NCBI GenBank assembly: GCA_026413945.1
Contig: JAOAJX010000001.1
Coordinates: forward strand, 64,001 to 128,000
From: Candidatus Iainarchaeum sp.
GTDB taxonomy: Archaea > Iainarchaeota > Iainarchaeia > Iainarchaeales > DTGL01
DNA: 64,000 nucleotides
Direction of reading: 5' to 3'
The notes below the pieces were generated by a model. The model ran no database searches, was not told where the DNA came from, and saw only the letters and a list, made by a program, of their open reading frames with translations. Position numbers and translations under genes: made by a program. This document shows, one piece after another, positions 5,025-45,840 of the stretch. Position 1 is the first letter of the stretch. Each line of letters begins with the position of its first letter.

Positions 5025-5025
5025 G

Positions 5026-26445: not shown

Positions 26446-27738
26446 ATGGCAGTGAATGTAAAGTTGTGCAGCAAAGCATCTCTTCTGCTTGTACTTATTC
26501 TAATATGCGCAAACGCATTTGCAACAGTGCCAAGGTTGCTAACAGTCCAAGGCCGCCTTAAAGACGGCACTGTGCTTGCGCATGGAGACTATAACATGAC
26601 ATTTTACATTTACAATGCCTCTAGCGGCGGCACTTCTCTATGGAGTGAGCAGCATTTCAATGTTCCTGTTGACAGGGGCTACTTTAGTGTCATACTTGGG
26701 GAAAGCAATCCAATAACGCTGCCTTTCACTACACAGTATTGGCTTGCAATAAGAGTAAATAATGAAGCTGAAATGACACCACGCTTAAAGCTGACAAACT
26801 CAAGCTATGCTTTTTATGCAATAGATGCAAATGTAAGCCCTTCGCAATGGATAACCTCGGGAAGCAATATTTATTATAATCTGGGCAATGTTGGAATAGG
26901 AGTGACTTCGCCTTCGTATAGATTAGATGTCAATGGCCCGTTGCGTCTTATGCCTGGCACTGCTCCGACTGGCGCGAATGGTGTGATTTACTATGACACA
27001 AGCACAAACAAATTCAGGTGCTACGAAAATGGTGCATGGGTTAATTGCATAAGCTCTGGTGGCGGCTCAATAATTTCCGCAGGTGACTCAAATGTTGAGG
27101 TTGTCGATGCTGGAGATGGTTATATTGTGCTCAGGGAAGACAATGCTGAAATAATGAGGGTTTCCGGTGGTAATATAGGCATTGGAACAACAAACCCCGG
27201 AACTAAACTTGATGTGTCCGGAGGCAGCATCCGTACTTCCGGGCAATTGATTTCAACAGTTGCAACCGGCACTTCGCCACTAGTTGTTTCCTCTACCACG
27301 GTGGTAACAAATTTAAACGCAGACATGGTGGATGGTTACCATTCATCTTCCTTGGCGAGAGCAAAGACAATATACCTTACAAGTACAACTTTTTATGGTA
27401 ATCATAACTGTGATGATGTGCCCACTAACTGCTGCGCTTCTGGCTACAGGATGTGCAGGTTGGGTGACTTGATGTCATACAGACCTGAACAAGACATAAT
27501 TGAATATAGTGGCACCGGCAGACACACTAGCCCATGGTTGTATGTCAATGGTTGGGTAGATGCAACATATTACAATTGTAATAGCTGGACTTCCAGTGAG
27601 GATGGAGTTTATGGAAGTATTGTGCAGCTCTATGGCCAAAGTGCAACAAAATTAGGCGGTTTTGGTTATTGGAATTATCCTTATTATACACAAGGTTGCT
27701 TATACGCTGCAAGGATTTGGTGCTGCAAAGAAGTATAA
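26446..27738 (+). CDS. Secreted fibre/adhesin-like protein with Cys-rich (DUF1554/C-lectin-like) C-terminal domain
   Basis: Signal peptide; P.LL..QGRL.D...G.FSV.LG...WL.I.VN; GN(V/I)GIG..P repeats; NLNADMVDG; C-terminal CNSWTSS...GC.....WCC. Confidence 0.7.
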   Translation: MAVNVKLCSKASLLLVLILICANAFATVPRLLTVQGRLKDGTVLAHGDYNMTFYIYNASSGGTSLWSEQHFNVPVDRGYFSVILGESNPITLPFTTQYWLAIRVNNEAEMTPRLKLTNSSYAFYAIDANVSPSQWITSGSNIYYNLGNVGIGVTSPSYRLDVNGPLRLMPGTAPTGANGVIYYDTSTNKFRCYENGAWVNCISSGGGSIISAGDSNVEVVDAGDGYIVLREDNAEIMRVSGGNIGIGTTNPGTKLDVSGGSIRTSGQLISTVATGTSPLVVSSTTVVTNLNADMVDGYHSSSLARAKTIYLTSTTFYGNHNCDDVPTNCCASGYRMCRLGDLMSYRPEQDIIEYSGTGRHTSPWLYVNGWVDATYYNCNSWTSSEDGVYGSIVQLYGQSATKLGGFGYWNYPYYTQGCLYAARIWCCKEV

Positions 27739-27820
27739 GGCATATAGCTCTAAAACCTCTTTGTTTTTTATAAAAGGCAATTTAATGGGCTTTATTAATT
27801 TTTCCGGTTAAATTTTAAGT

Positions 27821-28753
27821 ATGCCAATAAAGCGCCTTGATCTGAAGCTTGGCTTCAGGTGCAACAACAATTGCCTTAGCTGCCCTCAGGCACATAGGAG
27901 GCATCTTGGTGACTTGCGCCTTGAGGAAATAAAAAAACTTCTTGAAAAAGGCCGTGAGCATGAAGCCAATGAGGTTGTGCTTACAGGCGGAGAGCCAACA
28001 GTAAGGCCTGATATCCTTGAAATAATTGCTTACGCAAAAAAAATTGGCTATGAGTTTATACAGCTTCAGACAAATGCAAGAATGCTCTATTACAAAGAAT
28101 TTTGCGAGAAGCTTGTTGCAGCAGGCATAACTGATTTTGCACCTGCAATCCATGGTCCTAACGCTCAAGTTCACGACTATTTGGTGCAATCTCCAGGAGC
28201 ATTTGAACAAGCAATAAAAGGTGTTAGAAACCTCAAAGAACTGGGCCAATATGTGATAATGAACTCTGTCATAAACAAAATAAACTATGTGCTGCTTCCT
28301 GAAACAGCAAGGCTTTTTGTTGACCTTTGCGTAGACCAATACCAATTTGCATTTATACATTGTGTTGGAAATGCGAAAAAAAATATTGATCTTTTGCTGC
28401 CCAGGAAAAGTGAGGTTAAGCCTTATCTGCACAAAGCGCTTGATATTGGAATAAATGCTGGAATAAAAGTAATGGTTGAGGCATACCCTTATTGCTTTAT
28501 GCAAGGTTATGAAAAGCATTGCTCTGAGCTTTATATGCCAAATGCAGAAATTATGGATGCTGAAGGCATAGTTGAAGATTTTGAAAAGCTTAGGAAAGAG
28601 ACAGGCAAGCTAAAGGGAGAAAATTGCGAAAAATGCCGCTATGACCTTATTTGTGAAGGTCCTTGGAAGGAGTATCCACAAAAATTTGGCTGGAAAGAAT
28701 TTGTGCCTGTTAAAGGCAAAAAGATAATAAGCAAAAAGGAGTTGCTTGGATAA
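27821..28753 (+). CDS. Radical SAM protein, HxsC-like paralog 1
   Basis: CNNNCLSC, LTGGEPT.R.D, QTNAR, YPYC, C-terminal C..C.....CEG....Y. Confidence 0.88.
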   Translation: MPIKRLDLKLGFRCNNNCLSCPQAHRRHLGDLRLEEIKKLLEKGREHEANEVVLTGGEPTVRPDILEIIAYAKKIGYEFIQLQTNARMLYYKEFCEKLVAAGITDFAPAIHGPNAQVHDYLVQSPGAFEQAIKGVRNLKELGQYVIMNSVINKINYVLLPETARLFVDLCVDQYQFAFIHCVGNAKKNIDLLLPRKSEVKPYLHKALDIGINAGIKVMVEAYPYCFMQGYEKHCSELYMPNAEIMDAEGIVEDFEKLRKETGKLKGENCEKCRYDLICEGPWKEYPQKFGWKEFVPVKGKKIISKKELLG

Positions 28754-30251
28754 GAGAAATGAGTTAATTGTTTTAAAAAGATTGCTCGCAATTCCTAATA
28801 TGGTTGAGCGCATGAAAGAAAAAAGCATCGACTTTGATTCTTGCTATTTGCTTAATCAATACAACACAAAAAAACTAAGAGATAATGCATATTTGATAAC
28901 AACAGAACATGGCGCATGGGCCTTATTGAACAAAAAACAGTACAATCTGCTAAGGCTACAGCGGCTAAGCAAAGACAGAAAGCTCTTTGATGCGCTTGAG
29001 AAGAAGGGCATAGTGTTAACTGAAAATAATGTACAGAGCATAGTAAAGGCCTATGCTGTGAGAAACTCATTTCTTTTTCAGGGACCGTCATTGCACATAG
29101 TTGTGCCTACGTTGAGATGCAACCAGCGTTGCATATATTGCCATTCAAGAGCAGAGCCAGAAAGCGGCAGGGGCTTTGATATGGACAAAGATACAGCAAA
29201 AGCAGTTGTTGATTTCATCTTCAAGAGCCCTTCAGAGATTCTAATAATAGAGTTTCAGGGCGGCGACTGCCTTCTAAACTTTGAAATAACTGAGTTTATA
29301 ATAGACTATGCAAAAGAGCTTGCAAAAAAACATAAGAAAAAAGTTGGATTTTCAATTGTAACAAACCTCACAAAGATGGATGAAGATATAATAAGAAGCT
29401 TGAAGGAAAGGCACATAATGGGCTTAGCAACCTCCCTCGATGGTCCAAAGTATTTGCATGACAAAAATAGGCGTTATCTCGGTGGCAAAGGCACTTATGA
29501 AGATGTTGTGTATTGGATTAAAAGGATTAAGGAAGAATGGAAATACGATTTCAACCTAAATGCGCTTTGTACAATAACAAGGTACTCTTTACCCTATGGG
29601 AAGGAGATTGTTGATGAGTATTTGCGCCTTGGCTTTGATGGTATTTGGCTCAGGTTTATGAACAATATTGGTTTTGCTGCAGAAGCTTGGGGTAAAATTG
29701 GTTATTCTCCAGAGGAATATCTTGGCTTTTATGAAAATACACTTGATTACATTGTGAGCAAAAACACCAAAGAGAAGCATTTCACTGAGCTTATGGCTTT
29801 GATATTTCTTAAAAAAATACTCGGTGAAAGAGATCCCTATTTTACAGATATCCAAAGCCCTTGTGGAGCAGGAATAGGGCAACTGCTTTACAAATACAAT
29901 GGCGATATACATACGTGCGACGAAGGAAAGCTATTCGAGGAGTTTAAGCTAGGCAATGTTTTTACATCTAAGTATGAGGAAATATTCAAAAATGATACGC
30001 TAACAACAATGATTGATATATCATCAAAAAAGAATTATCTGTGTGATGCATGTATTTGGAGCCCATATTGTGGAATATGTCCGCTGCACACTTATGCAAC
30101 ACAAGGCACAATAGTTTCAAAGCTCGCTTTGGATGAACGATGCAAAATAATGAATGGCCTCATAAGCAGGATCTTCGAGAGGCAGTTGTTCTCAAAAAGG
30201 CACAGGGCTGTTTTCGGGAGATGGGTCGAAAAAGATGTTGTCTTTAAGTAG
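28746..30251 (+). CDS. hxsB: His-Xaa-Ser system radical SAM maturase HxsB
   Basis: SLHIVVPTLRCNQRCIYCH, IEFQGG, TSLDGP..LHD.NR, SPCGAGIGQL.Y.YNGDI.TCDEG, SPASM C..C...PYCG.CP. Confidence 0.88.
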   Translation: MDKRNELIVLKRLLAIPNMVERMKEKSIDFDSCYLLNQYNTKKLRDNAYLITTEHGAWALLNKKQYNLLRLQRLSKDRKLFDALEKKGIVLTENNVQSIVKAYAVRNSFLFQGPSLHIVVPTLRCNQRCIYCHSRAEPESGRGFDMDKDTAKAVVDFIFKSPSEILIIEFQGGDCLLNFEITEFIIDYAKELAKKHKKKVGFSIVTNLTKMDEDIIRSLKERHIMGLATSLDGPKYLHDKNRRYLGGKGTYEDVVYWIKRIKEEWKYDFNLNALCTITRYSLPYGKEIVDEYLRLGFDGIWLRFMNNIGFAAEAWGKIGYSPEEYLGFYENTLDYIVSKNTKEKHFTELMALIFLKKILGERDPYFTDIQSPCGAGIGQLLYKYNGDIHTCDEGKLFEEFKLGNVFTSKYEEIFKNDTLTTMIDISSKKNYLCDACIWSPYCGICPLHTYATQGTIVSKLALDERCKIMNGLISRIFERQLFSKRHRAVFGRWVEKDVVFK

Positions 30252-30259
30252 GGGTTTGC

Positions 30260-31330
30260 TTGTTTGAGTTCTTTTTTGTTTTTGCAATGCTGATTTCTTT
30301 TGCTATTGCACTCGAAGATATCCGTCATGGAAAAATACCAAATAAGCTAATAGTTTTACTTTATGCTCTTGGTATTTTTTATCAAGTGTTTTCAGCGACT
30401 GAGTACATGAAAGTAGTTTACACTTTTTTTTATGCACTAGCAATATCTTTTTTCCTTTGGCTTATCGGAATATGGCCTGCTGGCGATGCAAAGCTTTTTT
30501 CTGTTCTATTCTTGCTTTTGCCTCAGGCACTTTACAGCTCGACGACCCTAACTTTTGATTTTATGGTGAATTGCTTCGTGCCGATATTTTTCAGTATGTT
30601 TTTTGTTATAATAGCAAAGAGCCGCTTTTCGGTATTAAAAGATGCGATTAAGTTTACATTACAGCCATACAGAGTAACGATTCTAGCTTTAGCTTTGCTT
30701 GGCTTTGTTTGGTTTATCTCAAAAGGATTAAGCTTTCTCGCTTTTGGGCAAGCAATTTTCAGCGATTATTTTGTAATGTTGCTCTTGCTTTTTTTAACAT
30801 ATGAAGTCCTGAGGCGAATGTTAAGTGCAAAGGTTGAGCTTATTTTATTTTTTCTTGCTGTTCTGAGAGTTTTTCTTGATTATAGAAATGTATACTCGCT
30901 CACTTTCATGCTTAACTTCGGAAAAATGATTGCTGTATTCCTTCTCTTCCGCTTTTTTATAATATACCTGGCCTTTAAGCTTTACACAAAAAGTGTTGCA
31001 ATAAAGAACCTCAAGCCAGGCATGTGTCCTGCGGAAATGATTTTGCAGAAAGGCGATGAATTCGAGAGGATAAGCTTTCTGAATTCAGGCCTTTTGACAT
31101 TTGGCCATGAAAAGAAGGGTGAGCTAATACACAGCATTGACTACCTGTCAGAGGAGGATATAAAAAGGATAAAAAAACTGCGAAAGGAAAATAAGATTCC
31201 TTTCAATGACATGCTGATAAACTTCACGCAGCCATTTGCAGTATTCATTGTTCTCGGTTATGCGCTTACTGTGCTTTTTGGTACAAACTTTGTGCTTTAC
31301 ATTACAAAGACCGTCATGCTTTCCCAATGA
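30260..31330 (+). CDS. Second A24 prepilin peptidase-like protein, inside the Hxs cluster
   Basis: EDIRHGKIPNKL and PAGDAKLF catalytic Asp motifs, ~9 TM, LKPGM..AE, C-terminal PFAVFIVLG. Confidence 0.82.
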   Translation: MFEFFFVFAMLISFAIALEDIRHGKIPNKLIVLLYALGIFYQVFSATEYMKVVYTFFYALAISFFLWLIGIWPAGDAKLFSVLFLLLPQALYSSTTLTFDFMVNCFVPIFFSMFFVIIAKSRFSVLKDAIKFTLQPYRVTILALALLGFVWFISKGLSFLAFGQAIFSDYFVMLLLLFLTYEVLRRMLSAKVELILFFLAVLRVFLDYRNVYSLTFMLNFGKMIAVFLLFRFFIIYLAFKLYTKSVAIKNLKPGMCPAEMILQKGDEFERISFLNSGLLTFGHEKKGELIHSIDYLSEEDIKRIKKLRKENKIPFNDMLINFTQPFAVFIVLGYALTVLFGTNFVLYITKTVMLSQ

Positions 31331-31380
31331 TTTTTTCCTTCTTAGATAAATTAAAAACAATTATTTGAGGTAATTTAAAT

Positions 31381-32295
31381 ATGCCTGAAACAAAAACTGC
31401 GCTGCTTTTGGGATACAAGTGCAATAACAACTGCAGGTTTTGCTATGCTGCTGATAAGCGTGAACTATATGCAATGAGCACCGAAGAAGCAAAAAAGCAC
31501 TTAAAGGCAGCTGTGGAAAGAGGCTCAAGCTTTGTTGACTTCCTTGGCGGTGAGCCAACTATAAGAAAAGATCTTATTGAGCTAATCTCTCATGCAAAAG
31601 ACCTCGGCTTTAAAACGATAAGCATTACAACAAATGGAAGAATGCTTTCAAATATTGAATATGCTAAAAAGCTTTACAATGCTGGTTTGAATTCAGCGGT
31701 CTTTTCTGTGCATGGGCATAATGCGGAGCTGCACGATTATCTTGTGAATGTTAAGGGCGCTTTTGATCAGCTCGTGAAAGGCATGCAAAATTTTAGGGCA
31801 TTATCAGATGATGTTTACATATGCACTAATACCGTCATTGTAAAGCCGAATGTTTCTTTTTTACCCGATATAGCAGAGCTAAACGCGAAGCTTTTGGCTA
31901 ATGGCATGGAATTTATTTTTCCGCATCCGAGAGGCAACGCATACAAAAATTTTGAAGAAATGGTGCCAAGGTTGGAACAGCTTATAGGCGTTGTTCAGAG
32001 AACAATAGGAGTCTGCACTTCACAAGGCATAAAACACTGCTATTTTAGGTATGTCCCATTTTGCTACATGTACGGCGCAATAAATTTTATAAGCGAGTAT
32101 GCTGCAAAGGAGTCCCTTAAGGAAAATCATATAGGCCCGGAATTTGAGGATCTTGACGTTGAAAAAAACCGCGCAAAGTATGGCCGAATAAAAGGGCCTC
32201 AATGTTTTGGGTGCAAGTACAACAACGTTTGCGAAGGCATCTTCAGAGAATATGCTGAGAAGCGCGGTTTTGAGGAACTTGTGCCAGTACCGTGA
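31381..32295 (+). CDS. Radical SAM protein, HxsC-like paralog 2
   Basis: CNNNCRFC, GGEPTIRKD, TNGRML, VPFC, C..C.....CEG...Y. Confidence 0.88.
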   Translation: MPETKTALLLGYKCNNNCRFCYAADKRELYAMSTEEAKKHLKAAVERGSSFVDFLGGEPTIRKDLIELISHAKDLGFKTISITTNGRMLSNIEYAKKLYNAGLNSAVFSVHGHNAELHDYLVNVKGAFDQLVKGMQNFRALSDDVYICTNTVIVKPNVSFLPDIAELNAKLLANGMEFIFPHPRGNAYKNFEEMVPRLEQLIGVVQRTIGVCTSQGIKHCYFRYVPFCYMYGAINFISEYAAKESLKENHIGPEFEDLDVEKNRAKYGRIKGPQCFGCKYNNVCEGIFREYAEKRGFEELVPVP

Positions 32296-32308
32296 GCAAG
32301 GTGTTTTA

Positions 32309-32764
32309 GTGGAACTAAAAATATTAGTTAAGGCCTTAAGAAGGAAAGAGTTTGCAATTCCGATAGCTTTCCTTTTGTTCCTTTTGTTTTTTGGAGCAAT
32401 AATGCTTCTGGTTGATACTACAAAAAATGTTAAAAACATTGAAAGAGCAAGGATTTCTGGCTGCGTTTTGGAGTATGGGCCTTGGCAATGTATTGATGAT
32501 AAAATAGCTGTACCTTTTTATAATTCCGGGGTTTTAGACATAACAATGGTAAGACTTAGATTTCCTGTAAGAAATGGCTGGAATGTGTATGAGGCAAGTG
32601 GCATGCTCAGAAAAGGCGAGGCTGGAACATTGCTAACTGAAAGCTGTGCAGATGCGATAATGGAAGGCACAAAAGTTGAGTGGTGTTGCTCAAGCGATTG
32701 CTTTATCAGTGACCTTAAAAACCCAAACCAAAATGTTTTAGTAAAAATAAATTCTTTTGGTTAA
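32309..32764 (+). CDS. Pilin-like membrane-anchored small protein
   Basis: Basic leader plus TM; C.....C; YNSGVLDI...LRKGE resembles NTG..DL...LSPKE of the pilins at 53346-54269. Confidence 0.55.
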   Translation: MELKILVKALRRKEFAIPIAFLLFLLFFGAIMLLVDTTKNVKNIERARISGCVLEYGPWQCIDDKIAVPFYNSGVLDITMVRLRFPVRNGWNVYEASGMLRKGEAGTLLTESCADAIMEGTKVEWCCSSDCFISDLKNPNQNVLVKINSFG

Positions 32765-33404
32765 TATGGCAAAAATATTTTTTGGAGATGAACACCTTCC
32801 GGTTTGTGAGACAAATATCGAAGCCATAAGTAAAAACAGCAAAGCGGTATTAAGCTTTACTTTTAGAGAAGTTTTTCAACAAAAAACATTTGCGGAGAAT
32901 GCTAAACTGCTTGAGATTTGCCTAAAAGCAATGAAATATAAGGGAATAAGATTTTTTAGTGTGCCTTTTTGTGTCGCTGAGCCAGAAAAGGTTTCTGTTT
33001 TCAATAGCTTAGCTCTTAAGGTAAAGAGTGGGTTCTACTTTGAAGGTGCATATATGGTTCCTTTAGATAGTTGACCAGGAAAATTACCTGCCTTAAAAGT
33101 ATACGATTGCTGTTTCAGACGCGGTTTATTCGATGTATTAATGGCAATTAATTCTTTTAGTCATTTTAAGGATCCGGCTAAGAGTGTCATTGAAGCTAAG
33201 AGAGTATTGAAAGAAGGCGGCTTATTTATTTTGGTGGAAAATGAAATGGCTGAAAGAGATTTTGGGAGTAGAGATGGCTTTGATTCACATAATAGCCTAA
33301 AAAAGAAGCAGATAAAGGAGTTATTTCTGAAAAATGGGTTCATGTTAAAGACACAAAGAAAGGTTAGGCCTTACTACTTTTTGATGTTTGAGAAGGTTAA
33401 TTAA
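32757..33404 (+). pseudogene. Interrupted ORF (one in-frame TGA at 33072-33074) ending in the C-terminal half of a class I SAM methyltransferase
   Basis: ORFs 32757-33074 and 33141-33404 share a frame with no other stop; FDVLMAINSFSHFKDP....E..RVLK.GG..ILVE; no GxGxG motif I visible. Confidence 0.55.
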
Positions 33405-33414
33405 CAAGCTGAGA

Positions 33415-33436
33415 TGCTTGGGATTTCGCTCAAGCA
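33415..33436. terminator. Hairpin between the two convergent arms of the Hxs cluster
   Basis: TGCTTGGG-ATTTCG-CTCAAGCA in the 45-bp gap between convergent stop codons. Confidence 0.4.
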
Positions 33437-33449
33437 CCTACTTTATAAT

Positions 33450-34391
33450 TTAGCTTAGCAAAATAGCAATTGCGCATTGGCATTGAATGTCTTCTATTTT
33501 TTCGTATTTTTTCAAAATAGCATCTTTTACTTCTTTTTCTTCTTTTTGCTCTAGTAGTGGCTTTGCCTCACAAAGCTTCTTTATAAGCAGATAATCACGA
33601 ACAAAACATAAGTCTTTTGTTTTTTCTTTAATAATTATTTCTCCCATGGTATTGCAAATATTTTGTTCAAAAATGGCAGCCACCTTGCTGTTTTCTTTTC
33701 TGAGTTCTGAAAGGTTTTTGTCAAAAATGTTTAGTGCGGTTGTTGCTTTTGTTTTGAGTTTTCTTAGTTGCTCAGAAGGATCAGTTTTGTCAATTTTTAT
33801 TTCAAGTATTTTGAGTGCAATGTTTTTATCCAAAAAGTTTAAATCTCCGCATTCTTTCTCCGCTGTGACATAGCCGTACAAAGAGTCTAAGTCGTCTTCA
33901 GCGAGTTGTTTCTTTTTAAAATATTCTCTCCAGTAAGTCAGGGCTTTTGAAAACTTTGAGTTATCTAAGATTCTTTGCTTAATTTCTATCCAATTACTAT
34001 CTCTATTAAGCACTCTGATGCTAAAGCAGTATCCACCAAGTACTTTGTTTGGGTCACAAGATTCGGGCACCACACATTTTTTTTCAAACGATGCTTCTAT
34101 TAGCTTTATATGTTCTGGTTTTGTTTCTGCCAACCTTCGTTTAGCTTCAGTATCGCCTGCGAGAAAGGCAAATGTCGATTTCACAACAATGGTGTTGTGT
34201 ATTGCCTGAGGGGTGTTTTCATCAGATAATTTCATAGGTATTTCATCATAGCTGTAAAGGTAAACTTCATAACCTTTTTTTGTTGGATTTATTAGGTGCA
34301 TAATAACAAGTATTAAGGAGATAGCAAAAATTAGCAGCAGTAAAAGCATAACTAAGAACTTCTTTCTGCGATTTAGCAGAATCACGGCCAA
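33450..34391 (-). CDS. Hypothetical membrane-anchored helical protein with several Cys
   Basis: Basic N-terminus plus TM; last gene of the minus arm. Confidence 0.7.
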   Translation of the reverse strand: MAVILLNRRKKFLVMLLLLLIFAISLILVIMHLINPTKKGYEVYLYSYDEIPMKLSDENTPQAIHNTIVVKSTFAFLAGDTEAKRRLAETKPEHIKLIEASFEKKCVVPESCDPNKVLGGYCFSIRVLNRDSNWIEIKQRILDNSKFSKALTYWREYFKKKQLAEDDLDSLYGYVTAEKECGDLNFLDKNIALKILEIKIDKTDPSEQLRKLKTKATTALNIFDKNLSELRKENSKVAAIFEQNICNTMGEIIIKEKTKDLCFVRDYLLIKKLCEAKPLLEQKEEKEVKDAILKKYEKIEDIQCQCAIAILLS

Positions 34392-34433
34392 ACACCTTTC
34401 TTTTGGATGATATTTATATGTCCAGTGCCCTAT

Positions 34434-36287
34434 TTAAACCTTTTTTATTTGGTTTTGCAAAAAGTATTTTTCGTAAAGGGTCTTGCGATCTAAAATATTG
34501 CCAATTTTTGGCCCGGGGCGGTCATTGCAAAACTTTATCTTTCCATCTTGTACAACTTTAAAAAGCTCTAAGCAACCAAAACAGTCCGAAGGGATTCTAA
34601 ATTCGCTGTAGAATTTCTTTTCAGCCTCTTTGCTCATCTCTTGGACAAATATTGGTTTTGTGACTAAAAAAAGCACTCTTGCGGCTTTCAAGTTGTATAG
34701 GAACTCTTTGAAAACAATTGTTTCTCTTGGATTTAATTGTTGTTTGCAAATTGGTGAAAGCAAAACCAAGCCCAATCCTTTTGATCTTTTGTTGAAACTT
34801 ACTATTTCAAAGAATAGCCTGTCAAAATCTTCCTTTTGAGGATCAAATTTAATCAAAAGCACGTCCTTCTTTATTGCAGAGTGGATACTTTGGGAAATGG
34901 TTGCTATGAAGTAATGCCCAAGCAATCTCAAGCCATCTTTGCCATCTTCTAGATAAGGTCTTAGCTTAATTGTTTCTTTATTTGCAAGGTATCTAAAATA
35001 TTCTAAAATCTCCTCTTTTCTATCATCACAATGCATCTTATCTGGAATATAAATTGTTTTGTTTTCTCTCAGGTTTCTTAGCAGACAGCCTCCCCAGCAT
35101 AGCTTAAAATCACATTTTTGGCAAAGTTTAACTTTTTTGTACCAATTTCTTAACTCTTTTAGCTTCTTGTAATCTAAAACAATTTTTTTACTTTTAACGT
35201 CATATCTGCCGAAAATCAAATATGAAGCACCATGATTGAGTATATCTTCTTTATCTCCGAGCATCGCACAGGGAGTTATAAAACCTTCGGGTGTCACCAA
35301 AAAAGTGTTGCATACAGCACACCCGCAAGCAAACTTGTTTCCTAAAGATTTTTGTGCCGGAACAAGACAGCGCAGGTTAACAAGGTCGCACATTTCTTTT
35401 ATGGCAAGCTGCGATCTGATAAGCTTTCTGTAATAATTCATGTGCCTTTTTTTGTTTTTTTTATTTGTAGCTGCTTTACCCATACAACCTACAATTGACA
35501 CAAATATTTTTTCTACACCAAGTGAGTTGAAATACTTTACGGTCTTTTGTTCTTTACCAATATGTGCATATGTCAAAGTTATTTTTATAGTAAAGTCTTG
35601 ATTTTTTGAAACGAGCGCTCTTATATGATTTTCCACTATAATACTACTTTTACCTTCATTCGTGAAAGGTCGCACTTTGTCTTGTATCTCTGGTGGCCCG
35701 TCACAAGATATTTGAAAAGAATCACCAAAATAGTTTTCTTTTAATACAGCCAAATAATTTGAAGGCGAAATGGTACCATTCGTAGAAAGTTTGAATTGTT
35801 TTACGTTAAGCTTCTTTTTTGCATAATTTATTGTTTTTAAAAATAGGTGTTCATTGAGAAGTGGTTCTCCTGAAGTTACGAAGTCAATCAACATAGGCCA
35901 ATTTTGATGCTTGGCCAAAAAATCAGTCGAAGCTTTTATTAATTCAAACGAGGAATCTTTGCCTTTCTTAATACCACCATAACCAACGCAATAACTGCAG
36001 TTCAGGTTGCATTTAGTAGTTATTACAGGAATAAAGTTTTCGAATCTGCTTATTTTTGCAAATGGCTTTTTTGAATTTATGGCAATATATTTTCTTCCAA
36101 ATTTAAGAAAAGCTTCTTCATCCATTAAAAAGAAGTTTGAGGTGTTGCTGCATATAAAGAAAAAAAAGCTTTTTCTTTTGAAGAGCATATGGAGAAAAGG
36201 CTTTCTTTGTATTAGCTCTTTTTTCACTGTCACAAGATTGCTGCTATTAAATTTTTCATTGGAGCCTTCAAAAATCTTTAAAAGCAT
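34434..36287 (-). CDS. Radical SAM/SPASM domain protein with an extra C-terminal domain; directly downstream of the precursor
   Basis: CNLNCSYC, GEPLLN, ISCDGP..IQD..RP, C.......V.PEG.I.PC, CQKCDFKLCWGGC; tail SDCFGCLELF...KFC. Confidence 0.88.
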   Translation of the reverse strand: MLLKIFEGSNEKFNSSNLVTVKKELIQRKPFLHMLFKRKSFFFFICSNTSNFFLMDEEAFLKFGRKYIAINSKKPFAKISRFENFIPVITTKCNLNCSYCVGYGGIKKGKDSSFELIKASTDFLAKHQNWPMLIDFVTSGEPLLNEHLFLKTINYAKKKLNVKQFKLSTNGTISPSNYLAVLKENYFGDSFQISCDGPPEIQDKVRPFTNEGKSSIIVENHIRALVSKNQDFTIKITLTYAHIGKEQKTVKYFNSLGVEKIFVSIVGCMGKAATNKKNKKRHMNYYRKLIRSQLAIKEMCDLVNLRCLVPAQKSLGNKFACGCAVCNTFLVTPEGFITPCAMLGDKEDILNHGASYLIFGRYDVKSKKIVLDYKKLKELRNWYKKVKLCQKCDFKLCWGGCLLRNLRENKTIYIPDKMHCDDRKEEILEYFRYLANKETIKLRPYLEDGKDGLRLLGHYFIATISQSIHSAIKKDVLLIKFDPQKEDFDRLFFEIVSFNKRSKGLGLVLLSPICKQQLNPRETIVFKEFLYNLKAARVLFLVTKPIFVQEMSKEAEKKFYSEFRIPSDCFGCLELFKVVQDGKIKFCNDRPGPKIGNILDRKTLYEKYFLQNQIKKV

Positions 36288-36302
36288 TTTAAAGACCTAA
36301 GC

Positions 36303-36701
36303 TTAGTAGCAGTAAGCTGCATCACAGGCACCGATTCCACTATAATGGCTGCTGTGGCTTCCGTGGCTGCCGTGGCTTCCGTGACTTCCGTGGCTTCCGT
36401 GACTTCCGTGGCTGCTGTGGCTGCTGTGGCTGCTGTGGCTTGCGTGACTTGCATGGCTTGCGTGATGGCCGTGGCTAGCGCTAATATTGCCTGCATTCCA
36501 TCCAACGCTAAAGTAGTTTGTGTGTGTTGCTGCCACTTCAGGCAAAATATTGAGTATTGAAATCGACCCCAAAAAAGCACCAAGGGCAAGCATTTTGTGC
36601 TTTGAAATGCTGCCACGCTCTTCTAGAACAAATGATTTTATAGTTTTTTTTACTTTTGGAAGCAGAGATTCGTTTTCAGATGATTTTTCTTTTTTGGGCA
36701 T
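36303..36701 (-). CDS. hxsA: His-Xaa-Ser repeat precursor peptide (HxsA-like)
   Basis: Leader plus hydrophobic stretch, then (HAS)3(HSS)3(HGS)6 HSS HYS, ending GIGACDAAYCY; embedded among Hxs radical SAM genes. Confidence 0.88.
   Translation of the reverse strand: MPKKEKSSENESLLPKVKKTIKSFVLEERGSISKHKMLALGAFLGSISILNILPEVAATHTNYFSVGWNAGNISASHGHHASHASHASHSSHSSHSSHGSHGSHGSHGSHGSHGSHSSHYSGIGACDAAYCY
36339..36464 (-). repeat. 14 tandem imperfect 9-bp repeats encoding HxS triplets
   Basis: Plus-strand units such as GCTTCCGTG, GCTGCTGTG and GCTTGCGTG. Confidence 0.95.
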
Positions 36702-36759
36702 CTATTAAATAATAGATATACTTATTTAAAATATTTCCTAAAAGTTGAATGGCTGAAAA

Positions 36760-37602
36760 TCATATAATTGGGTTGAATTCTTCTTCGCCAGCAAGGGGTA
36801 TGTAACTTTTCCATATTTTTGGGCATTTTTCCTTAACCTTGCAGATTTCGCACGCTTCAATTAGCGTTAGTTCTGTTTCTTGCTTAGTTATTCCTTCTGC
36901 GAGATGCCAATACTTTTTGTCCATTATACAAAGAGGAAAATGAAACAGCATTACTTCAAAATTTGCCCTTAGTAAAGTTTCTGCTGCCTTCTCTACAAAT
37001 GGCGCTGCTTTGCTATACCTCACAAAAACCTTGCGCCTGTTGATGAACGCATTACCAGTGTATTTTAGGTTGATAAAAACAACCCTTTCAAGTCCTTTGA
37101 AGTTTTTCACAATGAATTCAGCGGTTTTTTTTAGATGCTTATAATTTATCTTCTCCACAAGAATTCTTAACTCAACTTTGAACCCTTTTTCCAGAAGTTT
37201 TTTTATACCATTCACGGTTTCATTCCAGCTTCCCTTGAATTGTGTTATGGAATCATGCACTTCTGGCTTGTGGCTGTACAAAGCTATGCCAAAACGTATT
37301 GGTTCAAGCTTATGCTTGCTTATCTTATCCACAAAGTCTTTACCTGAAAACTTTCGCCCATTGCTGACAACAAATATGAACTTATTAGGGTGTTTCTTTC
37401 TTGCGTATGCTAAGATATCAACGAAATCTTCCCTGAGTGTTGGCTCTCCGCCGGTAACGCCAAAAATCTCGGTTTCCGGAATCTTGTCTATAATCTCAAA
37501 TAATTTTGCTTTGCTTTGCTGCCCCAACCAGCAAGTCATTCTTGTATCAATTATGCAGCTTATGCAATTATTATTGCATTTGAAGGTTAGTGGCCACTCC
37601 AT
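36760..37602 (-). CDS. hxsC: His-Xaa-Ser system radical SAM maturase HxsC
   Basis: CNNNCISC, GVTGGEPTL, SNGR.F, I.LYS....HD.I....GSW.ET..GI, VELRI...K.NY, FHFPLC, C..C.VK..C. Confidence 0.82.
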   Translation of the reverse strand: MEWPLTFKCNNNCISCIIDTRMTCWLGQQSKAKLFEIIDKIPETEIFGVTGGEPTLREDFVDILAYARKKHPNKFIFVVSNGRKFSGKDFVDKISKHKLEPIRFGIALYSHKPEVHDSITQFKGSWNETVNGIKKLLEKGFKVELRILVEKINYKHLKKTAEFIVKNFKGLERVVFINLKYTGNAFINRRKVFVRYSKAAPFVEKAAETLLRANFEVMLFHFPLCIMDKKYWHLAEGITKQETELTLIEACEICKVKEKCPKIWKSYIPLAGEEEFNPII

Positions 37603-38489
37603 TTTAAGTCATCTCCAAGCAATTCTAAGCCTCTAAAGGCAACATACTTCTTGGATATACCAGGGCAATTATTTGCAAAGCGGCAATCTTTACAAATTTT
37701 CAGCTTTTCACAACTGCTTTTTATTTTCGTTTCTAAGTCAACTTTCATATCAAACCAGTACATCTTTGTCTTTAATTGGCCACAAGTAGCGCTGTCCTTG
37801 TTCTTCTTCAATGAGCATGGAGGCATATTCATTACCCAAACTGTAATGCCATGATTTTTTAGTATTGACGCAGCCGAATCCACACTTTCAGAAACCTGTG
37901 CAAACGTAGGTATGAGCCATTTGTTATTAAGCAAGTTACCGTCAATATCCGGGAATATTATGCACATTGCACGAATTTGGTAATTATTGCAGAGGAATTC
38001 TGCTAATTTAGGTAACTCATTGAAATTTATTTTATTTAATACAAAATTTACATCAATGGTAAGGTTTGCTTTTGATGCATTTTCCAGGCCTTTTATTGCT
38101 TTCTCAAATGCGCCTTTAACATTGCAAAGGAAGTCGTGCGTTTCCGGATTTAAGCCATGGATTGAAAGTATTACACCGGTTAGTCCTGCTGCAATCATTT
38201 GATCCAAAAATGCTTTATTTGAAAGCAAAAGGCCGTTTGTTGTAATCCTAACTTCTTTGGCCCCATTTTTTCTTGCAAATGCTATTAGCTCACACAGATC
38301 TTTGCGTATTGTTGGCTCGCCACCAGTAAAGTTAATCTCCTCAGCAAAGTCTTTACCTAACGCTAACATAATTTCCTTCTTTATCTCCTCTGTGCTCTTA
38401 TTCTGGTTCCTATTCCCAACAGAGCAAAAGAGGCAATTGTTGTTGCATGCAAAGCCCAAAACAATTTCAACTTTTCCTAAGTATGTCAT
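37587..38489 (-). CDS. Radical SAM protein, HxsC-like paralog 3
   Basis: CNNNCLFC, FTGGEPTIRKD, SIHG....HD.L, MPPC, C..C.....CPG....Y. Confidence 0.88.
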   Translation of the reverse strand: MTYLGKVEIVLGFACNNNCLFCSVGNRNQNKSTEEIKKEIMLALGKDFAEEINFTGGEPTIRKDLCELIAFARKNGAKEVRITTNGLLLSNKAFLDQMIAAGLTGVILSIHGLNPETHDFLCNVKGAFEKAIKGLENASKANLTIDVNFVLNKINFNELPKLAEFLCNNYQIRAMCIIFPDIDGNLLNNKWLIPTFAQVSESVDSAASILKNHGITVWVMNMPPCSLKKNKDSATCGQLKTKMYWFDMKVDLETKIKSSCEKLKICKDCRFANNCPGISKKYVAFRGLELLGDDLKWSGH

Positions 38490-38504
38490 CAAAGCACCTG
38501 TGCA

Positions 38505-39389
38505 TCAGCTAAATTGCAGCAACAGACCTTTTTCAATTTCCCCAACAAACTTTTTGCCAGAGTAAACTCTTAAAGAATCTTCTTTTGCAATAATGGAGTT
38601 TCCTTTGGATAAGATACCTTTAAACCCACTGAAGTCAATGGATAATTCACCAATAATTGAAGAGTATCTTATTGAATCACCTTCTTTGTGGCCTTCAAAT
38701 GTGCAAAACTCATGATCATTCCACACGATAATTGGCTTCTTTAAAAAATGTTCTGCGCTCTTGCAGAAAGCGGGTATTTGTTTGCTTAAGATATGTTGCA
38801 TTTTTCTTCCAAATTTTAGGCTTTCCTTACAGTCAAAAGAACATGGTTGGTGTGGTATGAAAAAAAGGTTATAAGTGCTTATCCTAATAAAATTTTCATC
38901 ATTGCCAATCAAAGCATAGTCGCCTTTGCTAGAGAAATTGTATGTTGAGTTAAGAAGGAAGTTAAGCTTTTTGCTGTTTTGGAAGATCCTTTCAATAAGG
39001 TTGTAGTCATACTTACCGCCCTGTTTTGAACAGGGGTTTTTTTCAGACAAGGTTTTAATGAAAAAGGAAGTGCAGCAAGGCGGATAGCCAAAAAGGTCAC
39101 CAACATCTATTCTATTGGCATTAGCTTCTGCTCTGGCTGCTTTTTCAATATCTTGCCTCGATTTTGAAATATATGCCAGAAGCATGCTTTCTTTTGTTTC
39201 GTAAATTTTAATCCTCTTTACTTCGCATTCTAAGCCCCAGCCCTTTGCGAGTTTTTTTACGCTTCCCTTGTCATTTTCTGATATTCCTGTTCGCGAAACC
39301 GGCTTTAGGTCATAAACTACTCCAAAAAAATCCACTGGTGAAAAGAACCCAAGCCAAGTTGGTTTTTCAAATAAAATTTTGCTACGCAT
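38505..39389 (-). CDS. DUF483-like protein
   Basis: G.LFGYPPCC..FF and H.PCSFDC.ES motifs. Confidence 0.65.
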   Translation of the reverse strand: MRSKILFEKPTWLGFFSPVDFFGVVYDLKPVSRTGISENDKGSVKKLAKGWGLECEVKRIKIYETKESMLLAYISKSRQDIEKAARAEANANRIDVGDLFGYPPCCTSFFIKTLSEKNPCSKQGGKYDYNLIERIFQNSKKLNFLLNSTYNFSSKGDYALIGNDENFIRISTYNLFFIPHQPCSFDCKESLKFGRKMQHILSKQIPAFCKSAEHFLKKPIIVWNDHEFCTFEGHKEGDSIRYSSIIGELSIDFSGFKGILSKGNSIIAKEDSLRVYSGKKFVGEIEKGLLLQFS

Positions 39390-39390
39390 A

Positions 39391-40353
39391 TCAATACTCC
39401 TGCAGCTTAAATTCTTCTGTGGTAATTTGTTTTCCTTCAATAGGCTTGAATTCTGAAAAGCCCCTTACACGAGTATATTCCTTGAAAGGGCCAACGCAGA
39501 GTAAAAAATATTTGCATTTTTTGCAATTTGCGCCTTTGCTTCTGTACTTCTGCCTGTTTTTTTGTATGTCTGCCCTGAACTTTGGCCCAATCAAAATTGT
39601 GTTTGTGACAGTGAGCTCAGACATAATGTTTGTGTAGCTTGGCAATATGCAAGGATACATATTATGCAAAAAAGGCTTTCCACCCTCTTTGAGTAGAATA
39701 TCACACGCCTCTTTGATGTAAGAAGCAGCTTCATCTATCCTTGGAACCATTCGCTCGAAATCCTGTTTAGCGAAGCCGTCTGGTATTGCAAAATTTAAGT
39801 GATAGCTTTTGGTGTTCTTCTTGAACTTGAGAAGGAAAGCAGCCATTTCAGGCAGTTTTTCATAATTGTAGGTGTTTATTACCGTGCTTGTGCGCTTTTC
39901 AATGCCAAGATCTTCAAGATTTTTCAAGCCAGCAACTTTGTCATCGAAAGAACCTTTTGTTTGCGTAAGGAAATCCTCTAATTTTGCATTTGGCGCGTGT
40001 ATTGATACGAGTACTCGGTTTACACCTAAATCAAAAATTTTCTTCGCATAGTTACGGTACTTAAGCATGCAGCCATTTGTCTGGATCTCAATGACTTCAA
40101 AACCAAGCTTTTTTGCATATCTTATTGCCTCAAACAAATCTTTCCTTATAGTTGGCTCGCCGCCGGAAAAAGATATTATGTCTGCGCCGCATCTCTTGGC
40201 AAACTCCAAATCCTTTTTTATTTCCAACCAGCTTTTTGCGCGGCCATCTGAAACAAGCTTGTGGCCTACCGAGCAAAAAATGCAGCGCTGATTACATTGC
40301 CAATTAACCAGAATTTCAACCTTTTTAAGCCCAATTTCAGCTCTTTCATTCAT
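39391..40353 (-). CDS. Radical SAM protein, HxsC-like paralog 4
   Basis: CNQRCIFC, FSGGEPTIRKD, QTNG, YPC, C..C.....C.G....Y. Confidence 0.88.
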   Translation of the reverse strand: MNERAEIGLKKVEILVNWQCNQRCIFCSVGHKLVSDGRAKSWLEIKKDLEFAKRCGADIISFSGGEPTIRKDLFEAIRYAKKLGFEVIEIQTNGCMLKYRNYAKKIFDLGVNRVLVSIHAPNAKLEDFLTQTKGSFDDKVAGLKNLEDLGIEKRTSTVINTYNYEKLPEMAAFLLKFKKNTKSYHLNFAIPDGFAKQDFERMVPRIDEAASYIKEACDILLKEGGKPFLHNMYPCILPSYTNIMSELTVTNTILIGPKFRADIQKNRQKYRSKGANCKKCKYFLLCVGPFKEYTRVRGFSEFKPIEGKQITTEEFKLQEY

Positions 40354-40371
40354 TTTCAATACCGCATAAAA

Positions 40372-40617
40372 TCAAGGTGAAGCGCCCTTTATTAGGCTCA
40401 AGACATAATTGCAGAACTCAAGGGTTAACTTTTCAGCAGAAACAGCCTCTGTTTTCATTGTAATGTGAAAATATCTGCCGGACTCTTTTTTTGTTATTTT
40501 TGCGCCTTTAACCTCTTTAAGCGCCTTATTAACTATTTTTCTTGGGTAAAAGGCCTTTGAAAGGTTTAATGTTGCTTTTTTTCCATCTTCTTTTACTTCC
40601 AATAACATTTTAAGCAC
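40372..40617 (-). CDS. HxsD-like protein (short)
   Basis: L.K.FY....V..A.....LEFCNYVLSL; similar to the adjacent HxsD. Confidence 0.6.
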   Translation of the reverse strand: MLKMLLEVKEDGKKATLNLSKAFYPRKIVNKALKEVKGAKITKKESGRYFHITMKTEAVSAEKLTLEFCNYVLSLIKGASP

Positions 40618-40641
40618 CCTGCATGGGCAAATGCTAAACCT

Positions 40642-41124
40642 TTAGCCCTTTGGCTTCTTAAGCCCTTTTGCCTTTTCAGGAGTCCACGGCTTAGCTATGC
40701 CTTCTGGGTCATCTATGAACAAATCATCAGTTGGCATTTTTATGTCGGCTGCTTTTTCTTTAATATTTTCCTCCTCAGCGCATTGGGGGCAGTAGTTTTC
40801 AGTTAGGTTTGTTGCTAAGGCACGCTTTATTATTGCCTCTCTAATCGGCTGGTTTCTTGCTGCTTGTATCGCATAAGCAGCATAGTTTATCAATTCATCA
40901 TGGAGTTTCAAAGCAAGGCTTTCAAGCTTCTTTCTGCTAAGCGCCTCTTCTTTCGGCTTTATCAATATTTTAATCTCTTTTTGCGGGTCGCCATCAAGTA
41001 TAAAATATGCCCTATCAAGAAGAACGTAGCAGGCAGCATAAACAACTTCAAGCGGGAAAACTTTTGGGTTTATGCTTAATATTGCTTCGTTTTTATCTGG
41101 AAATAGTTCAATGCCATGTACCAT
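40642..41124 (-). CDS. hxsD: His-Xaa-Ser system protein HxsD
   Basis: I...VFP.EVV.AACY..LDRAY..L, ELINY......N..IRE.I..RAL, tail DDPEGIAKPW. Confidence 0.78.
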   Translation of the reverse strand: MVHGIELFPDKNEAILSINPKVFPLEVVYAACYVLLDRAYFILDGDPQKEIKILIKPKEEALSRKKLESLALKLHDELINYAAYAIQAARNQPIREAIIKRALATNLTENYCPQCAEEENIKEKAADIKMPTDDLFIDDPEGIAKPWTPEKAKGLKKPKG

Positions 41125-41233
41125 AAAATCACCTGTGGAATAAACATTTATCAACAGAAAGTTTAATTAATAACAATAATTAAATATATAAAAACGTTTA
41201 TATTTTGCTTGCAAAATAAAAATAGTGAAAAAT

Positions 41234-44941: not shown

Positions 44942-44975
44942 CTGTGGTTATATTTCCGGTATTCTGTTTTAAGAG

Positions 44976-45836
44976 TTATGCTGGTGCTAAGAAAGAGATT
45001 GCGGTTATATAAATAAATAATGACGTTATGAGGAGTATTATTGAATGCTTTAGTCCTGACACAAAACTGTCTTCTGCAATTTTACCTATCATCGGGCCCG
45101 CAAAAAGTGCTTGTATTATTATAAGCCGAGTAAAATGCTCTTGGTAATCAACCTCTTTTGCGGTGGACCGTGATTCAATTGGCTGTCCAGTTATATCTAT
45201 TCCACCTTCAAGAACTTGGCCAATATTTACGCCAACCTGCTCTTTAAGCATTGGGATGAAGAAAACATATATCAGTATTATTATAATGACAAAAACGTAA
45301 AACATAAGGTATGAGTTTATTAGTGCGGAGGTTGTTCTTGATTTCCTCTGGCTTTTAAGCTTTTCAACTTTGTCAACATAGTCAATAGCAACAGAGAAAA
45401 CTTTCATGAAATTACCACCAGCACGAAGGGTCTGGTTTATAGCAACAGTTGTTTTCTTTATTAGGGGGCTATTGATGCGCCCGAATGTTATGAGCATTGC
45501 TTTTTCCATTGGAACCCCCAAGCGAACCTTTGCAGCAAGTCTTTTTACGTATATTGTTAATGCACCATAATCATTCCTAGCTGTTATTGCCAAGGCATCG
45601 CTGATATTAACCCCGCCTTGCAGAAGATCTTTTAGGTCATCTAAGAAAACCCTAAAATTTTCTTCGATTTCCTTGACGATTTTAGTTTTTGTATAGAAAG
45701 CATACATTGGTGGTATGAAGAGAAGAGTAAATGGCACTAATGAAAAGCTTGTATTTTGCAATACAAGATATGCTGCCAAAAATAGTACTATGCTGATAAA
45801 AAACCACTTTCCATAATATTTCAAATCGATTAGCAT
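44976..45836 (-). CDS. Type II secretion system F / TadC-ArlJ-like pilus platform protein
   Basis: FLDDL..L..G..I..AL......YGAL, GG, IIQALFAG...G.I.E.S..SGLKH. Confidence 0.88.
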   Translation of the reverse strand: MLIDLKYYGKWFFISIVLFLAAYLVLQNTSFSLVPFTLLFIPPMYAFYTKTKIVKEIEENFRVFLDDLKDLLQGGVNISDALAITARNDYGALTIYVKRLAAKVRLGVPMEKAMLITFGRINSPLIKKTTVAINQTLRAGGNFMKVFSVAIDYVDKVEKLKSQRKSRTTSALINSYLMFYVFVIIIILIYVFFIPMLKEQVGVNIGQVLEGGIDITGQPIESRSTAKEVDYQEHFTRLIIIQALFAGPMIGKIAEDSFVSGLKHSIILLITSLFIYITAISFLAPA

Positions 45837-45840
45837 TAAA

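Follow-up and report, generated by a model that had tools for sequence, protein, structure and literature searches.

An enlarged Hxs gene cluster in an archaeal genome

The window analysed here is a 64,000-nucleotide stretch of the genome of Candidatus Iainarchaeum sp. (contig JAOAJX010000001.1, positions 64,001 to 128,000; assembly GCA_026413945.1), and the element in question is a gene cluster of the Hxs type, in which radical S-adenosylmethionine (SAM) enzymes are encoded beside a substrate with tandem His-Xaa-Ser (H-x-S) repeats. Sixteen open reading frames (ORFs) form two convergent operons between 27821 and 41154 of the window. They are tightly packed, with overlaps or gaps of no more than 58 nt inside each operon, and HxsB lies on the strand opposite to HxsA, HxsC and HxsD. 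An earlier note on this DNA had reported HxsB, HxsC, four HxsC-like paralogs, two HxsD-like proteins, an A24 peptidase, a DUF483-like protein and an HxS precursor, all of which were found in their places among the following features:

27821-28753, plus strand: HxsC-family radical SAM paralog A (orthogroup A)
28746-30251, plus strand: HxsB, radical SAM/SPASM maturase
30260-31330, plus strand: Hxs-linked A24 peptidase (prepilin-peptidase-type aspartyl peptidase with archaeal C-terminal domain)
31381-32295, plus strand: HxsC-family radical SAM paralog D (orthogroup D)
32207-32764 (ORF; probable start near 32303), plus strand: small Cys-rich protein E, predicted to be membrane-anchored
32757-33074 and 33141-33404 (ORFs), plus strand: methyltransferase-gene remnants, pseudogene
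33450-34391, minus strand: protein H, with N-terminal hydrophobic anchor and conserved Cys, no significant family match
34434-36287, minus strand: enzyme I, 617-residue PapB-like radical SAM/SPASM protein with a C-terminal extension of about 180 residues
36303-36701, minus strand: HxsA-type precursor, 132 residues
36760-37602, minus strand: HxsC (divergent), radical SAM; also called K in the tree
37587-38492, minus strand: HxsC-like radical SAM paralog L
38505-39440 (probable start 39389), minus strand: DUF483-family protein M
39391-40359, minus strand: HxsC-family radical SAM paralog N
40372-40617, minus strand: HxsD-like small protein
40642-41154, minus strand: HxsD with C-terminal extension

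NCBIfam curated cut-offs and Pfam gathering scores served as match thresholds throughout. Each of the seven radical SAM candidates contains exactly one CX3CX2C motif, which is found in no other protein of the cluster, and all seven, enzyme I included, pass PF04055, in agreement with the earlier count of seven CxxxCxxC radical SAM proteins in two convergent operons. For HxsB, TIGR03978 gives 429.2 bits (cut-off 370), in an alignment covering 2-466 of 466, and matches the SPASM domain (PF13186) in addition to PF04055. Enzyme I had thus been correctly described as a SPASM protein, but it is not the only one, since HxsB brings the number in the cluster to two. When the Hxs models were run as the earlier note had proposed, the best matches of HxsC, HxsD and the precursor remained below the respective cut-offs. 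The HxsC gene (36760-37602) reaches 203.8 bits against TIGR03977 (cut-off 267.9) over 31-289 of 292, and its next-best family, at 96.8 bits, falls more than 100 bits behind. HxsD has TIGR03976 as its sole match (40.2 bits, cut-off 50, over 3-87 of 90) and, aligned with 13 homologues, shows conserved N-P-K and D-G motifs and an L-x-N-Y...R block in place of the full LLNDYxLRE-type motif. The HxsD-like protein passes NF038315 (HxsD_rel) with 43.3 bits against a cut-off of 41; its homologues adjoin HxsD in seven other clusters, and it is present too in G053, G051 and G054:C71 (handles in G, C, L and f denote genomes, contigs, loci and families).

By virtue of its HxsB, its HxsC- and HxsD-type partners and its repeat substrate, the cluster is, as judged from sequence, an Hxs system. 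In its enlarged archaeal form it is a variant, and Hxs variants with an extra HxsC-type enzyme are already recognised by NCBIfam, whose models HxsC4 (NF038332), HxsA3 and HxsA4 (NF038309 and NF038313) and HxsD_rel (NF038315) show as much. These variant models are the ones best matched by the precursor and by three of the paralogs; only NF038315 was passed, by the HxsD-like protein.

The host assembly, from the Iainarchaeota (DPANN), comprises 948,649 bp in 21 contigs and is 92% complete, and at 0.95 Mb it is the genome-reduced archaeon that had been supposed. The cluster (13.3 kb) takes up 1.4% of this genome and contains 7 of its 15 matches to Radical_SAM (PF04055); the genome has one HxsB above the cut-off and one HxsA. 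DNA of the window was found in one public run, which is labelled a hot-spring metagenome and is probably the source sample; no RNA run was listed. In an independent assembly of the DNA run the contigs confirm 27015-36316 as a single piece, while 36519-42000 had no cover among the contigs listed, a gap that carries no weight. A general scan of the window for Rfam families returned four tRNAs only.

Conservation of the gene set and of the HxsC-type paralogs

At E<=1e-40, 29 of the phylum's 215 genomes contain HxsB; 10 of the 12 in the host's own family (f1) and 15 of the 23 in family f11 are among them. Stretches of 20 kb were fetched and the proteins of the window were mapped onto them. The gene set travels with HxS-repeat precursors in 27 clusters from three DPANN phyla, which bears out the synteny that was to be sought across DPANN genomes. 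In G053, from the same genus as the host, the order is syntenic from A through HxsD and continues into the flanking surface-protein and pilus genes, and in G052, of the same genus, L, M and N are missing. Four other genomes of f1 (G054, G056, G058 and G059) have two clusters each. The contig G051:C9 (L037 and L062) carries about twelve CX3CX2C ORFs and a precursor with 27 H-x-S triplets; such ORF counts per stretch are rough, being made on stop-to-stop frames that may include unrelated genes, and indicate a trend only. At the other end of the range, a minimal form in f11 consists of an A24 gene, HxsD, often an HxsD-like gene, HxsB, a precursor of 67-75 residues with about four H-x-S triplets, and one more radical SAM gene, which is not of the HxsC type and has its best matches among NirJ2 or pseudo-SAM/SPASM models. 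Outside the phylum, the complete genome of Candidatus Fermentimicrarchaeum limneticum (Micrarchaeota) has a cluster of the same make-up with seven radical SAM genes, comprising A24, HxsD, HxsB, HxsA, an I-like enzyme, four HxsC4-like genes and HxsC, and a related cluster, with a DUF483 homologue among its genes, was seen in a metagenome-assembled genome of the Woesearchaeota. In two genera of f1 the genes that flank the cluster are the same, and this fixed chromosomal site suggests vertical inheritance with turnover of accessory genes.

The four HxsC-like paralogs and HxsC itself share a C-terminal CX2CX5C motif, which in paralog A lies at residue 269, with the CX3CX2C motif at residue 14. Paralog A is best matched by HxsC4 (152 bits) and HxsC (109.9 bits), both under the cut-off, and HxsC4 or HxsC also leads for paralog D (HxsC4, 156.2 bits over 17-335 of 335), paralog N (HxsC4, 136.1; HxsC, 105 bits) and paralog L (HxsC, 119; HxsC4, 111.1 bits). 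The HxsC4 cut-off of 500 bits is missed by all five proteins (156.2, 152, 136.1, 111.1 and 96.8 bits). A maximum likelihood tree (quick search, support by the Shimodaira-Hasegawa-like approximate likelihood ratio test, SH-aLRT, midpoint root) was built from 63 HxsC-like proteins of the fetched loci, after four over-long ORFs had been trimmed to their last 325 residues and fragments shorter than 230 residues excluded. Paralog A belongs to a 14-row clade (99% SH-aLRT) in which Micrarchaeota and other families of the Iainarchaeota are represented, paralog D in a clade of 10 rows (100%), and HxsC, or K, in a clade of nine rows (99%) with members from Micrarchaeota and Woesearchaeota. L is sister to the HxsC/K clade (91%), and N pairs with one protein of G056 (99%); two trimmed rows from Woesearchaeota lie on long branches. 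Orthologues of L occur in G053 (76% identity) and G054 (58%), with none in G052, and those of N in G053 (83%), G051 (78%) and G056 (46%). For paralog D, public data from DPANN metagenomes yield 520 homologues at E<=1e-10; among the 120 that were listed, which include records from Diapherotrites, Aenigmatarchaeota, Altiarchaeota and Nanohaloarchaea, the only names given are 'radical SAM protein' and MoaA-like ones. On this evidence from sequence the paralogs are old, separate orthogroups and not recent duplicates, and their long-lived distinctness favours separate jobs for them over a dosage effect.

The precursor, the Hxs-linked peptidase and a proposed pathway

In its 132 residues the precursor has 18 His and 29 Ser, with 14 H-x-S triplets, and it can be divided into a leader (residues 1-36), a hydrophobic helix (38-56), a linker, the repeats (80-121, where 13 of the 14 triplets form one unbroken run) and a tail with two Cys. 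Its matches to HxsA4 (46.6 bits, cut-off 55) and HxsA3 (38.9 bits, cut-off 65) are below threshold. The highest mean Kyte-Doolittle hydrophobicity over 19 residues is 1.69, at residues 38-56, a value close to the usual threshold for a membrane helix. The leader is conserved among 17 HxsA sequences from 16 genomes (two come from the two clusters of G056), with E28, K34 and G41 invariant and G30 and I32 nearly so, and in all 17 the hydrophobic stretch begins near G41, between the leader and the H-x-S core.

Two unusual frames were seen in the course of this comparison. The HxsA homologue of G059:C13 (L045:2260-3726) continues into a frame of 489 residues, in which the H-x-S run gives way to Ser-Cys-His-Ser-type repeats followed by a long C-terminal domain, and may be a fused or extended substrate. 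Upstream of a divergent HxsB (35% identity) in G198:C73, a 287-residue frame (L055:5313-6173) contains about 35 H-x-S-type triplets within Pro/Tyr-containing repeats; the stretch has no A24 or HxsD gene.

The A24 peptidase passes both PF01478 (36.7 bits, gathering score 26.5) and the archaeal C-terminal domain PF06819 (28.5 bits, threshold 23.4); no NCBIfam model matches it. Residues D20 and D76, the latter in an A-G-D-x-K motif, are invariant among 21 Hxs-linked homologues and align with the D and the G-G-D of a second A24 gene in the window; we take them to be the catalytic Asp residues of the family. The gene adjoins HxsB in 24 of the 27 clusters, those of Micrarchaeota and Woesearchaeota included. 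It was not found at the clusters of G056:C24 and G198:C73, and G058:C128 is uninformative on this point, as the contig stops just past HxsB. A profile built from the 21 Hxs-linked proteins and run on the 215 genomes of the phylum gave a bimodal distribution of scores: 26 genomes yielded 28 matches of 349-454 bits, and the next best score was 103.7 bits. Nineteen of the 26 genomes had contributed rows to the profile, and the other seven score equally high. Counting a split gene in G056:C31, this subfamily is found in 27 of the 29 HxsB-positive genomes, the two without it being G082 (72% complete) and G198; it is missing from the phylum's 186 HxsB-negative genomes, where the best score is 103.7 bits. 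By profile score and distribution the Hxs-linked A24 protein is a distinct subfamily and a component of Hxs clusters. PibD, FlaK and EppA are archaeal class III signal peptidases of the A24 family; the Hxs-linked protein resembles such enzymes in having PF01478, PF06819 and both Asp motifs, but differs in forming a separate subfamily (members at 349 bits or more, all others at 103.7 or less) that is found only with Hxs genes, and in that its presumed substrate lacks the classical prepilin cleavage context.

The split gene of G056:C31 (L066:4192-5014) consists of two adjacent pieces scoring 136.8 and 162.8 bits and may be frameshifted; the other Hxs cluster of that genome has no A24 gene. The genome analysed here holds three A24 genes, and the two others, at 4194-5114 of the window and at G000:C11:12443-12730, have stronger Pfam scores and presumably serve ordinary pilins or archaellins.

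Enzyme I, with its CX3CX2C motif at residue 93, has the ranthipeptide maturase PapB (NF047865) as its best NCBIfam match, at 99.9 bits against a cut-off of 340, and scores only 61.3 bits against the HxsB model. It is like PapB in aligning over nearly the whole of that model (8-327 of 330) and in co-occurring with Cys in the precursor; it is unlike PapB in its C-terminal extension of about 180 residues and in its presumed substrate, the tail of an HxS-repeat protein, and its thioether chemistry is a prediction. An I-like gene is present in 9 of the 12 clusters with Cys in HxsA and in none of the eight without, a pattern that is suggestive only, because the genomes are related and not independent samples.

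The closest system for which there is experimental work is that of Escherichia coli, where the four HXS genes provide antiphage defence and HxsA blocks the entry of phage DNA (PMC13128918, Nat Commun 2026), and the earlier remark that no product of an Hxs system had been characterised is therefore out of date. According to the available text of that study, HxsB, HxsC and HxsD are necessary for a non-canonical N-terminal cleavage of HxsA, for a +8 Da modification, which sits on one motif, and for export of HxsA, and the effector needs the peptidoglycan-binding domain of HxsA (PMC13128918). The same text assigns 99.7% of the systems to Pseudomonadota and finds more than 99.8% to have four genes, with no mention of archaea; it names no protease for HxsA, the words 'protease' and 'peptidase' being absent from it (PMC13128918), which makes the archaeal A24 protein a candidate for that step.

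The window cluster shares with the E. coli system an HxsB equivalog, a second radical SAM enzyme of the HxsC type, a small HxsD, and a tandem His-Xaa-Ser substrate with an N-terminal region for export or processing. It departs from it in having seven radical SAM enzymes in place of two and in adding an HxsD-like protein, the A24 peptidase, a DUF483 protein and the PapB-like SPASM enzyme. Moreover, HxsA of E. coli is longer than 214 residues, with five repeats and a peptidoglycan-binding domain, whereas the precursor of the window has 132 residues, a hydrophobic helix and 14 repeats, and the gene order D-B-C-A contrasts with two convergent operons in an archaeal host. Our literature searches found no paper on archaeal Hxs systems, on the names of the Hxs variant models or on a prepilin-type peptidase in a radical SAM peptide pathway, and for DUF483 only families with longer DUF numbers came up.

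We lean, with somewhat more confidence than doubt, towards a multi-enzyme Hxs system of DPANN archaea that would make a leader-cleaved, surface-located, modified HxS protein, most likely serving as an antiviral barrier, a suggestion drawn from gene content and from analogy with E. coli. In such a pathway an ancestral core of HxsB, HxsC, HxsD and the HxsD-like protein would modify the H-x-S motifs in the cytoplasm, and paralogs A, D, L and N might each add a distinct modification or serve a distinct subset of repeats. The PapB-like enzyme I would have the Cys tail as its target and would probably introduce a cross-link of the thioether type. The A24 peptidase, as an integral membrane enzyme, would cut the leader at the membrane, with a candidate site after the nearly invariant Gly30, and the modified His/Ser-rich part would end up outside the cell, either anchored by the hydrophobic helix or released from it. 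A role as a cell-surface barrier to the entry of viral DNA, taken over from E. coli HXS, is the least certain step, and metal binding or host contact by way of a pilus-like structure are serious alternatives to it. That the product is heavily modified we infer from the number of enzymes.

Several observations weigh against this pathway. HxsC, HxsD and HxsA all fall below curated cut-offs, and against the canonical HxsA model TIGR03979 the precursor gave no match at E<=0.01; Pfam returned only a chance-level collagen match for it and no peptidoglycan-binding domain. These archaea are not known to have a periplasm of the E. coli kind. Modification, cleavage, location and expression are all predictions from the genes. 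A polar run of about seven residues separates Gly30 from the hydrophobic helix, which in classical class III signal peptides follows the cut directly, and the proposed cleavage site is for this reason a guess. The substrate of the A24 peptidase could instead be protein E, whose predicted build is pilin- or FlaF-like; minimal clusters without E still carry an A24 gene. Three clusters (G059:C13, G214 and G062) have a Cys-bearing precursor and no I-like gene, and the genomes compared, being related, do not count as independent. Finally, the conserved position of the locus is unlike that of typical mobile defence islands. A narrower proposal, possible in our view and on the doubtful side, is that the A24 peptidase is both the missing Hxs leader protease and the export gate, and that archaeal HxsA is a new type of class III-like surface protein, a His/Ser-repeat 'brush' modified by as many as seven radical SAM enzymes, which would be cut, displayed on the surface of DPANN cells, and there block the entry of viral DNA or contact a host cell.

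Other explanations would give these genes a different purpose. It is unlikely, in our estimate, that the product is a released peptide, multiply cross-linked and rich in His, made on the ribosome and modified after translation (a RiPP), that acts as a metallophore binding Ni, Zn or Cu or else as an antimicrobial. The 67-75-residue precursors of f11, ending in a short H-x-S core, do have the look of a classical leader plus core, the precursor of the window has 18 His in 132 residues, the PapB-like enzyme belongs to a class of RiPP maturases, and the position of the locus is conserved. No defence genes were recognised near the cluster either, a PADLOC scan returning only cross-matches of radical SAM domains to viperin models from a database (PADLOC-DB 2.0) that holds no Hxs model. 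A released peptide is harder to reconcile with the helix found between leader and core in 17 of 17 precursors, which suggests membrane insertion, and with the lack of any transporter or exporter gene among the cluster proteins in the NCBIfam and Pfam scans; in addition, the sole Hxs system tested, as described in the available text, is antiviral (PMC13128918).

We find it rather improbable that HxsA, and perhaps protein E, are pilin-like proteins processed by the A24 peptidase and displayed on a type IV pilus-like machine, so that the radical SAM modifications would tune the adhesion of a probably episymbiotic archaeon to its host cell. A24 enzymes are prepilin and prearchaellin peptidases, and the one in the cluster is confined to Hxs genomes, but the HxsA leader, of about 30-36 residues, lacks a classical cleavage context, and when the class III cleavage motif was sought by eye in HxsA and E neither fitted the consensus. 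The AlphaFold2 model of protein E (pLDDT 83.7) combines an N-terminal helix with a beta-sandwich and has matches to the archaellum proteins FlaF/FlaG and to an archaeal type IV pilin; these lie at E ~1e-3, just over the threshold, and at template modelling (TM) scores of 0.36-0.45 and concern a very common fold, so the likeness is a weak lead only. An Ig-domain surface protein and T2SSE/T2SSF genes follow the cluster, with synteny in G053, but pilus genes adjoin it only within the host's own genus. Surface-protein-like pieces flank further clusters as well, but domains of this type occur in about four proteins of the genome, which makes adjacency weak evidence.

That the radical SAM genes are unrelated enzymes of cofactor synthesis or tRNA modification (MoaA-, NirJ- or AhbD-like), lying near an HxS gene by chance, we consider very improbable. 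MoaA, AhbD and NirJ models do match the paralogs, at 60-106 bits, and public names such as 'MoaA/NifB/PqqE family' or 'cyclic pyranopterin phosphate synthase' point the same way, but HxsC or HxsC4 is the top family for all five proteins, the HxsC-type C-terminal Cys motif is retained, and across families and phyla the orthogroups keep HxsB, HxsD and HxsA as neighbours. With five of the enzymes best matched by HxsC or HxsC4, one by HxsB and one by PapB, none of the seven has a cofactor-biosynthesis family as its best match; membership in such clades was what the earlier note had named as a way in which its view could fail.

The available text of the E. coli study defines neither the chemistry by which Hxs proteins are modified nor the protease by which HxsA is trimmed (PMC13128918), and for the protease the archaeal clusters name a candidate. 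The versions with two, five, seven and about twelve radical SAM enzymes form a natural series that might allow each enzyme to be linked to a single reaction. These genomes are of about 1 Mb and some of them keep two clusters, from which it follows that the product must matter to the organisms. If it is antiviral, a defence that blocks DNA entry would be extended to archaea without most known defence systems, and if the proposed role of the A24 peptidase is true, a RiPP-like pathway would for the first time be found to work with a prepilin-type peptidase, and archaea would have their first antiviral Hxs system. One survey, in its available text, reports no biosynthetic clusters in ten genomes of the Iainarchaeota (PMC9902471), and standard genome mining thus seems to miss Hxs clusters.

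Accessory and neighbouring genes

Protein E, which has no Pfam or NCBIfam match, follows paralog D in 12 clusters and has six invariant Cys. Protein H likewise has no significant family match in NCBIfam or Pfam, and its homologues adjoin the SPASM enzyme in four other clusters. The C-terminal extension of HxsD contains a D-P-x-G-I-A-x-P-W motif that is seen in family f1, G062, Candidatus Fermentimicrarchaeum and the Woesearchaeota genome, and is missing from the minimal systems of f11.

Protein M scores 18.5 bits against DUF483 (PF04467), below the gathering score of 25; the family is nevertheless matched at E<=0.01 by 60 of 61 aligned homologues of M (best 1.7e-9), and in the nearest atlas clusters 20-28% of the members carry DUF483. 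There are 497 representatives of M at E<=1e-3, with invariant G-x-P-x-C-C and P...C motifs and a nearly invariant H-x-x-C. The first codon of the ORF is a TTG, in overlap with the gene upstream; no homologue starts before residue 18, which makes the ATG at 39389 the probable start. The AlphaFold2 model of M is predicted with high confidence (pLDDT 93.2), and Foldseek found nothing in the PDB at E<=0.001. Structural comparison with VIA-align gave matches to the N-terminal domain only (2guk, Z 7.8; the methyltransferase effector NleE, Z 5.5), which lie in the background range and were rejected.

The ORFs at 32757-33074 and 33141-33404 are, by comparison with their orthologues, a single pseudogene. 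In G053 and G051, from the same genus, the orthologues are intact single genes of 305-315 residues (L038:9219-10133 and L037:10726-11670), in which an N-terminal Cys-containing domain is fused to a class I SAM methyltransferase; a full Methyltransf_11 domain was found in the G053 orthologue, the one scanned. The copy in the window keeps the ends only (profile positions 66-95 of 95) and has lost the middle with the SAM-binding part, and a separately assembled contig across the site agrees with the window, with no indel.

Right after HxsD, the region 41225-48949 encodes a 1238-residue Big_3_3 Ig-like protein, two T2SSF proteins and a T2SSE ATPase, all syntenic in G053, and would represent a type IV pilus-like assembly set. 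Just upstream of the cluster, at 26446-27738, lies a gene for a secreted-looking protein of 430 residues with a Cys-rich C-terminus, conserved in genomes of the same genus, whose N-terminal part has a weak match to the Bdellovibrio mosaic adhesive trimer fibre domain (29.3 bits, cut-off 60). Pieces resembling the 1238-residue surface protein flank the Hxs clusters of G051, G052, G055, G056 and G057.

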